Shown piece by piece: positions 10,914 to 11,965 of a stretch of 64,000 nt of DNA. The stretch lies in the NCBI RefSeq assembly GCF_003334785.1, contig NZ_QOWV01000013.1. One strand, 5' to 3'. Both the position numbers and the translations under genes were made by a program. The notes under the pieces are model-generated. The model saw nothing but the letters and a program-made list of their open reading frames with translations, did not search any database and was not told the origin of the DNA. The DNA is from Escherichia coli (lineage in GTDB: Bacteria; Pseudomonadota; Gammaproteobacteria; Enterobacterales; Enterobacteriaceae). How positions within the stretch are numbered: position 1 is the stretch's first letter; each line of letters opens with the position of its first letter.

Positions 10914-11873
10914 GTGGCACAACGAGATTATGTACGCCGCAGCCAACCGGCACCTTCGCGGCGAAAAAAGAGCACCTCACGGAAAAAGCAACGAAATCTG
11001 CCTGCGGTTTCTCCCGCTATGGTCGCTATTGCTGCCGCCGTTCTTGTGACCTTTATCGGTGGTCTGTACTTCATTACGCATCACAAGAAAGAAGAGTCCG
11101 AGACGCTGCAAAGCCAGAAAGTGACCGGAAACGGACTACCACCAAAACCAGAAGAACGCTGGCGCTACATTAAAGAGCTGGAAAGTCGCCAGCCGGGAGT
11201 GCGTGCGCCCACAGAACCTTCTGCCGGTGGTGAAGTGAAAACGCCGGAGCAACTGACACCAGAACAACGTCAGCTTCTTGAACAAATGCAGGCTGATATG
11301 CGCCAGCAGCCAACGCAGCTGGTTGAAGTTCCGTGGAATGAACAGACGCCGGAACAGCGTCAGCAAACGCTACAGCGCCAACGTCAGGCGCAGCAATTAG
11401 CGGAACAGCAACGCCTGGCTCAGCAGTCGCGTACGACTGAACAAAGCTGGCAGCAGCAGACGCGTACGTCGCAAGCCGCACCGGTACAGGCGCAACCGCG
11501 CCAGTCTAAACCGGCTTCTTCTCAGCAGCCGTACCAGGATCTGCTGCAAACTCCTGCGCACACGACTGCGCAGTCGAAGCCGCAGCAAGCTGCGCCAGTT
11601 GCTCGTGCCGCTGACGCGCCAAAACCGACGGCGGAGAAAAAAGACGAACGCCGCTGGATGGTGCAGTGCGGTTCGTTCAGAGGCGCGGAACAGGCAGAGA
11701 CGGTACGTGCTCAGCTGGCGTTCGAAGGCTTTGACTCGAAAATCACCACCAACAATGGCTGGAATCGTGTGGTCATTGGCCCGGTGAAAGGCAAAGAGAA
11801 CGCAGACAGCACCCTCAATCGGTTGAAGATGGCGGGTCATACAAACTGCATTCGGCTCGCCGCCGGGGGTTGA
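10914..11873 (+). CDS. ftsN: cell division protein FtsN (TM anchor, Gln-rich linker, C-terminal SPOR domain)
   Basis: ORF track 319 aa MAQRDYVRRSQPAPSRRKK...; C-terminus ...WMVQCGSFRGAEQAETVRAQLAFEGFDSKITT... Confidence 0.95.
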   Translation: MAQRDYVRRSQPAPSRRKKSTSRKKQRNLPAVSPAMVAIAAAVLVTFIGGLYFITHHKKEESETLQSQKVTGNGLPPKPEERWRYIKELESRQPGVRAPTEPSAGGEVKTPEQLTPEQRQLLEQMQADMRQQPTQLVEVPWNEQTPEQRQQTLQRQRQAQQLAEQQRLAQQSRTTEQSWQQQTRTSQAAPVQAQPRQSKPASSQQPYQDLLQTPAHTTAQSKPQQAAPVARAADAPKPTAEKKDERRWMVQCGSFRGAEQAETVRAQLAFEGFDSKITTNNGWNRVVIGPVKGKENADSTLNRLKMAGHTNCIRLAAGG

Positions 11874-11897
11874 AACCCTCAAAATCCCCCCCATCTA
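11870..11897 (+). promoter_or_regulatory. sigma32 heat-shock promoter of hslVU
   Basis: TTGAAA (overlapping the ftsN stop codon) followed after about 13 nt by CCCCCCATCTA, matching the sigma32 -35/-10 pattern. Confidence 0.6.
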
Positions 11898-11965
11898 TAA
11901 TTGCATTATGCCCCGTACTTTTGTACGGGGTTTGTACTCTGTATTCGTAACCAAGGGGTCAGCTC

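Follow-up and report, generated by a model that had tools for sequence, protein, structure and literature searches.

The promoter of the Escherichia coli hslVU (clpQY) heat-shock protease operon has been described before, with a sigma-32 site credited to Chuang 1993 as cited by Lien 2009 (PMC2681174). Mutation of rpoH, but not of rpoS, lowers lacZ fusion activity, both basal and heat-induced, and the amount of native mRNA, and a shift from 30 to 42 °C raises hslVU expression (Lien 2009, PMC2681174). A C-to-T change in the -10 CCCCATCT lowered expression 1.7-fold and abolished heat induction, while fusions with 141 bp or 478 bp of upstream DNA behaved alike (Lien 2009, PMC2681174). Some basal expression persisted in rpoH mutants in the same study, and thus another transcription source contributes a little. 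Downstream of the start, deletion or disruption of a leader hairpin lowers both the level and the half-life of hslVU mRNA, and a swapped stem of other sequence and the same structure restores both (Lien 2009, PMC2681174); the ompA and papA 5' stabilising stem-loops, whose hairpins lie a few nucleotides from the 5' end, were drawn as parallels there.

We analysed a 64,000-nucleotide stretch of E. coli chromosomal DNA (the window) that carries this locus. The window is identical to K-12 MG1655 over positions 11800-12000 and has one mismatch over 10700-14000, so that the element examined here is the published hslVp/clpQY promoter, the same locus with the same bases and no biological difference. 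K-12 coordinates were obtained as 4134253 minus the window position. The 401 bases around the promoter have a match in 5426 of 5426 complete E. coli genomes, and the RefSeq annotation beneath the matched bases is ftsN and hslV; in 266 of the 5426 the stretch is only 95-99% identical. On the plus strand the ORF list gives the order priA, cytR, ftsN, hslV, hslU, menA and rraA. The genes and the ribosome-binding site that frame the promoter are as follows.

10914-11873, plus strand: ftsN coding sequence, 319 aa, GTG start, ending in GCC GCC GGG GGT TGA (ORF list, RefSeq).
11953-11958, plus strand: Shine-Dalgarno AAGGGG, 7 nt 5' of the hslV GTG start; AAGGGG or AGGGG is conserved in the alignment.
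11966-12496, plus strand: hslV (clpQ) coding sequence, GTG start, 176 aa (ORF list, RefSeq).
12506-13837, plus strand: hslU (clpY) coding sequence, 443 aa, second gene of the operon (ORF list, comparison with MG1655).

The gap between ftsN and hslV measures 92 bp (11874-11965), in agreement with the roughly 90 bp given in a first-pass annotation made from the sequence alone. That annotation had placed an hslVU heat-shock promoter here, a proposal borne out by the published rpoH dependence, heat induction and -10 mutant (Lien 2009, PMC2681174). Both the observation and its interpretation were correct and already in the literature, and the leader is already a curated Rfam family. A Klebsiella RNA interactome paper and the Campos 2018 phenotype screen name the genes of this promoter only in passing. 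With the promoter, its sigma factor, the start site, the leader hairpin and the ftsN read-through all published, the locus is of little significance as a discovery; its main use is as a positive control, a true sigma-32 promoter that can be recognised from sequence alone.

Read from 5' to 3', the promoter runs GGGGG-TTGAAA-CCCTCAAAATCCC-CCCCATCTA-TAATTGCA, and its elements are located as listed.

11866-11869, plus strand: GGGG run within the last two FtsN codons (GGG GGT), abutting the -35 on its upstream side; invariant at the DNA level, synonymous third positions included.
11870-11875, plus strand: -35 element TTGAAA of the sigma-32 promoter hslVp, holding the ftsN TGA stop (11871-11873); invariant in 67 of 67 loci.
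11876-11888, plus strand: 13-nt spacer, whose 3' end forms, with the first bases of the -10, a homopolymer of seven C (11886-11892).
11889-11897, plus strand: -10 region CCCCATCTA, an extended -10 CC plus the core CCATNT; its CCCC is 99-100% conserved in the 67 loci.
11896-11901, plus strand: a perfect TATAAT hexamer that overlaps the 3' end of the sigma-32 -10 and lies 20 nt from TTGAAA.
11905, plus strand: hslVU transcription start (A), giving a 5'UTR of 61 nt; SMRT-Cappable-seq unit 4120362-4122348, reverse, b3932/b3931.

Since the ftsN reading frame ends at 11873, its TGA stop falls inside TTGAAA, exactly the overlap that the first-pass annotation had called. The annotation also put the -10 about 13 nt downstream, which matches the measured spacer; its position for the -10 region was right, although it counted six C where the run has seven. 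The hslVp elements agree closely with those expected of a sigma-32 promoter. TTGAAA is exact, and the sole deviation from the published -35 consensus CTTGAA is a G in place of the C immediately 5' of TTGAA. The -10 consensus CCCCATNT, comprising the extended CC and the core, is matched without error by CCCCATCT at 11889-11896, and the distance from TTGAAA to CCCCAT is 13 nt, within the expected 13-14 nt. The same arrangement is found in dnaK P1 (CCCCCTTGAAGACGTGGTTTACGACCCCATTTAG): both promoters have TTGAA, 13 nt between it and CCCCAT, and a start some 15-16 nt past the first C. The two differ upstream of the -35, where dnaK P1 has a run of C, as do the Vibrionaceae hslV promoters, whereas hslVp of the Enterobacterales has an invariant G run because the C-terminal Gly or Arg-Gly of FtsN is encoded there.

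The exact pattern TTGAAA-N13-CCCCATNT occurs once in the 64-kb window and in none of 100 dinucleotide-preserving shuffles, which upholds the first-pass view of an almost perfect consensus match. A looser search for TTGAA with a 12-16 nt spacer also returned one window match, and 5 of the 100 shuffles yielded one. When two mismatches were allowed the motif was not significant (81 of 100 shuffles matched); such a pattern is common by chance, and it is thus the exactness of the match that counts. In most Enterobacteriaceae the stop codon and the -35 are flanked by an inverted repeat, GGGGG-TTGAAA-CCCCC (window 11865-11880), that is absent from other families. We considered it as a regulatory hairpin and set it aside: its C arm is kept only in Enterobacteriaceae and is imperfect in E. 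coli (CCCTC), and the repeat appears in the minimum-energy fold only in another register.

The mapped transcription start agrees with this assignment. SMRT-Cappable-seq reports, in two tables, an hslV-hslU unit at 4120362-4122348 on the reverse strand, and K-12 4122348 converts to window position 11905, an A located 8 nt past the end of CCCCATCTA. This is the distance expected for a sigma-32 -10, to within 1 nt (counted from the first C of CCCCAT, the start is 16 nt away here and 15 nt away in dnaK P1). A 5' end mapped elsewhere had been named by the first-pass annotation as what would speak against its promoter; the end at 11905 is consistent with the -10. The supplements of Ettwiller 2016 contain no coordinate in the hslV promoter range. 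Lien 2009 (PMC2681174) places the start 71 bp upstream of the start codon, which would correspond to window position 11895, inside the -10 and 10 nt off the 61-nt leader of SMRT-Cappable-seq; this conflict probably reflects a numbering error in the older literature.

Taken with the published genetics, these features identify the element, almost certainly, as hslVp, the single sigma-32 (RpoH) promoter of the operon. Sigma-32 RNA polymerase reads TTGAAA (11870-11875) and CCCCATCT (11889-11896), 13 nt apart, and starts at the A at 11905. The -35 hexamer is built on the closing T of the last Gly codon together with the TGA stop, because ftsN stops only 92 bp before hslV. The 61-nt leader opens with a GC-rich hairpin (+6 to +27) that shields the mRNA from decay.

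The perfect TATAAT at 11896-11901 raises the alternative that the working promoter is read by sigma-70 or sigma-S, with the sigma-32 motif being secondary. Such a reading could draw on the basal expression that persists in rpoH mutants, and Lien 2009 (PMC2681174) noted a putative RpoS -10 partly overlapping the RpoH site, which we infer to be this hexamer. However, neither an rpoS mutation nor mutation of the putative RpoS -10 had any effect (Lien 2009, PMC2681174). The wild-type spacer between TTGAAA and TATAAT is 20 nt, too far for sigma-70, and as a result the built-in sigma-70 promoter scan of 10700-12600 found no promoter-like site; the scan lacks sigma-32 coverage and so provides no argument against hslVp. 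Moreover, the start at 11905 is only 3 nt past TATAAT, too close for that hexamer, and is correctly placed for CCCCATCT. We consider transcription by sigma-70 or sigma-S as the principal route very improbable.

The same hexamer gains relevance from mutations in the C run. In a laboratory heat-evolution study a 2-bp deletion arose in the run of seven C, from which the authors expected stronger sigma-70 activity and greater use of sigma-70. By sequence, the loss of two C would yield TTGAAA-N18-TATAAT, a near-consensus sigma-70 promoter, a point in favour of the sigma-70 alternative. A second, independent heat-adaptation study reported a 1-bp deletion at -74/+19, which corresponds to window position 11892. 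The C7 run (11886-11892) straddles the boundary between spacer and -10, and its length sets the -35/-10 spacing, so that mutations arising during heat-adaptation experiments can easily change that spacing. That independent heat-evolution experiments hit the run in this promoter speaks for hslVp.

A different alternative holds that the motif is a chance resemblance and that most hslVU mRNA comes from polymerases that started at the ftsN or cytR promoter and read through. Read-through itself is real. The first-pass annotation had expected ftsN transcription to cross the hslVU promoter, and SMRT-Cappable-seq (Supplementary Figure 5, hslVU region) reports a full-length ftsN-hslV-hslU transcript beside cytR-ftsN, hslV-hslU and hslV-hslU-menA-rraA transcripts; in addition, our scan calls no strong terminator between ftsN and hslV, and the Term-seq tables of Adams 2021 contain no sense-strand ftsN 3' end. 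Against read-through as the main source, fusions with only 141 bp of upstream DNA have full activity that depends on rpoH, and no RT-PCR product was obtained when the primer lay upstream of the hslVU start (Lien 2009, PMC2681174). The capped 5' end at 11905, the conservation of the motif in at least 67 genomes and its absence from all 100 shuffles likewise argue against chance. Read-through as the main route was already refuted by the short-fusion and -10 mutant data, and we give it next to no credence.

The promoter footprint covers the last ~50 nt of ftsN. From this layout one may imagine that sigma-32 polymerase at hslVp acts during heat shock as a putative roadblock to polymerases completing ftsN, so that less full-length ftsN mRNA would be made and folding stress would delay division; we regard this idea as quite unlikely.

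To see how far the arrangement extends, species-representative genomes were scanned for HslV, giving 80 loci, with ftsN directly upstream in 77. Essentially every one of the 77 syntenic loci, from Enterobacterales to Vibrionaceae, has TTGAAA-N13/14-CCCCATNT upstream of hslV, with a spacing that is mostly 13 nt and in a few cases 14 nt. Of the 77, 67 have the ftsN TGA embedded in a perfect TTGAAA at the same offset, followed 13-14 nt downstream by CCCCATNT; all 67 belong to the Enterobacterales. These include the Enterobacteriaceae, Serratia, Yersinia, Erwinia, Pantoea, Pectobacterium and Dickeya as well as Hafnia, Edwardsiella, Proteus, Morganella, Photorhabdus and Xenorhabdus. For five loci (L066, L070, L076, L078 and L081) the ftsN stop could not be placed automatically, or only with doubt. 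Four of them (L066, L070, L078 and L081) carry GGGG-TTGAAA and have probably kept the overlap of stop and -35; at L076 no promoter motif was found. In Photobacterium, Vibrio, Grimontia and Aestuariibacter the promoter is detached from the stop codon and has the usual C before TTGAA; the Vibrionaceae form, apart from the ftsN stop, reads CCC-TTGAA.

Across the 67 loci the GGGG-TTGAAA columns are invariant (67/67), in contrast to the third codon positions 5' of them, where conservation is only 39-73%. The second-to-last FtsN residue is Gly or Arg (GGG, AGG or CGG), and the last two bases of its codon never vary. As the end of the codon is fixed though the residue varies, the constraint acts on the DNA. 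The promoter appears to freeze the end of the essential gene ftsN, synonymous sites included. The comparative results, namely the layout with the stop codon in the -35, the frozen codons and, as described below, the hairpin covariation and the terminator-like hairpins of some genera, are new but minor. One locus, L002, from a record titled Escherichia coli SCPM-O-B-8794, encodes an HslV that is 99% identical and has a spacer that differs in sequence, with a C5 run, but is again 13 nt long; its leader hairpin is of different sequence with the pairing preserved.

The hslVU leader begins with five unpaired nucleotides followed by the hairpin, and a known RNA family covers it.

11910-11931, plus strand: 5'UTR stem-loop, a 9-bp stem GCCCCGUAC/GUACGGGGU with a UUUU loop, at +6 to +27.
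11911-11968, plus strand: match to Rfam RF02401 'ClpQY_promoter', a cis-regulatory 5'UTR element; 63.6 bits, E = 5.9e-13.

The Rfam score of 63.6 bits compares with a gathering score of 42, and model positions 1-57 of 57 are matched; despite its name, the family covers the leader RNA and not the -35 and -10 DNA elements. The hairpin has a free energy of -17 kcal/mol (z = -5.25) with 5 of 9 stem pairs G-C, and it forms in folding also within the longer ftsN 3' context. It is found in nearly every related locus, beginning at +5 to +11 in most of them (+6 in E. coli). When 30 short versions were aligned, compensatory changes were seen in 6 of 8 hairpin pairs; 95.8% of cells are paired, versus 36-59% when the partners are slid, and the covariation score is 0.53, versus at most 0.16 in the slid controls. 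The leader therefore has what characterises an ompA-type stabilising stem-loop, a stable hairpin near the 5' end that is conserved as a structure. As with ompA and papA, structure rather than sequence matters, as indicated by the compensatory changes and by the published swapped stem. Unlike them, the hslVU hairpin sits right behind an upstream gene and carries a T-rich tail, features through which it may act on the 3' ends of ftsN transcripts too.

This position allows the reading that the 11910-11931 hairpin serves chiefly ftsN, as its intrinsic terminator, and stands in the hslVU leader as a by-product of tight spacing. The 9-bp stem with its five G-C pairs and -17 kcal/mol qualifies as the GC-rich stem-loop of such a terminator and is followed by UUUGU, and SMRT-Cappable-seq reports a cytR-ftsN transcript that ends after ftsN. 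Several relatives go further, with hairpins followed by a T run that looks like that of a canonical terminator.

Tatumella (L040, L061): 6-7 T in 8 nt.
Rosenbergiella (L056, L057): 6-7 T in 8 nt.
Pantoea, some (L065, L073): 6-7 T in 8 nt.
Hafnia (L038): 6-7 T in 8 nt.
Dickeya (L036): 5 T in 8 nt (CCTTTTTC).

A T run is also visible by eye in the alignment row of Pectobacterium betavasculorum. Overall, the tail contains at least 5 T in 8 at 23 of the 67 loci and 6-7 T in 8 at 8 of the 67. These T-run hairpins lie 3' of the hslV start, and transcripts from the heat-shock promoter would consequently need to read through them. In E. coli, by contrast, the tail (UUUGUACU or UUGUACUC) is weaker, with only 4-5 U in 8, and the terminator scan leaves the hairpin uncalled. 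The Term-seq tables of Adams 2021 hold no sense-strand 3' ends for ftsN or hslV, read-through transcripts exist, and stabilisation of the downstream mRNA has been demonstrated directly, with the swapped stem restoring it (Lien 2009, PMC2681174). We thus view a role primarily as ftsN terminator as possible, if rather unlikely, and prefer the stabiliser of hslVU mRNA as the main function.

The terminator and stabiliser roles are not mutually exclusive. It is possible that the E. coli hairpin also ends some ftsN transcripts as a weak terminator. The leader hairpin may even be a deliberately shared part, a leaky ftsN terminator and an hslVU 5' stabiliser at once, and may in this way serve both neighbouring genes. 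One 3' end has been mapped next to the hairpin, on the opposite strand.

11906, minus strand: Term-seq 3' end, K-12 plus strand 4122347 (Adams 2021, Supplementary file 1).

This antisense end, 1 nt away from the hslV start and 4 nt beyond the hairpin, may mark the end of a genuine antisense RNA, or it may be a library artefact caused by the abundant hslV 5' end.
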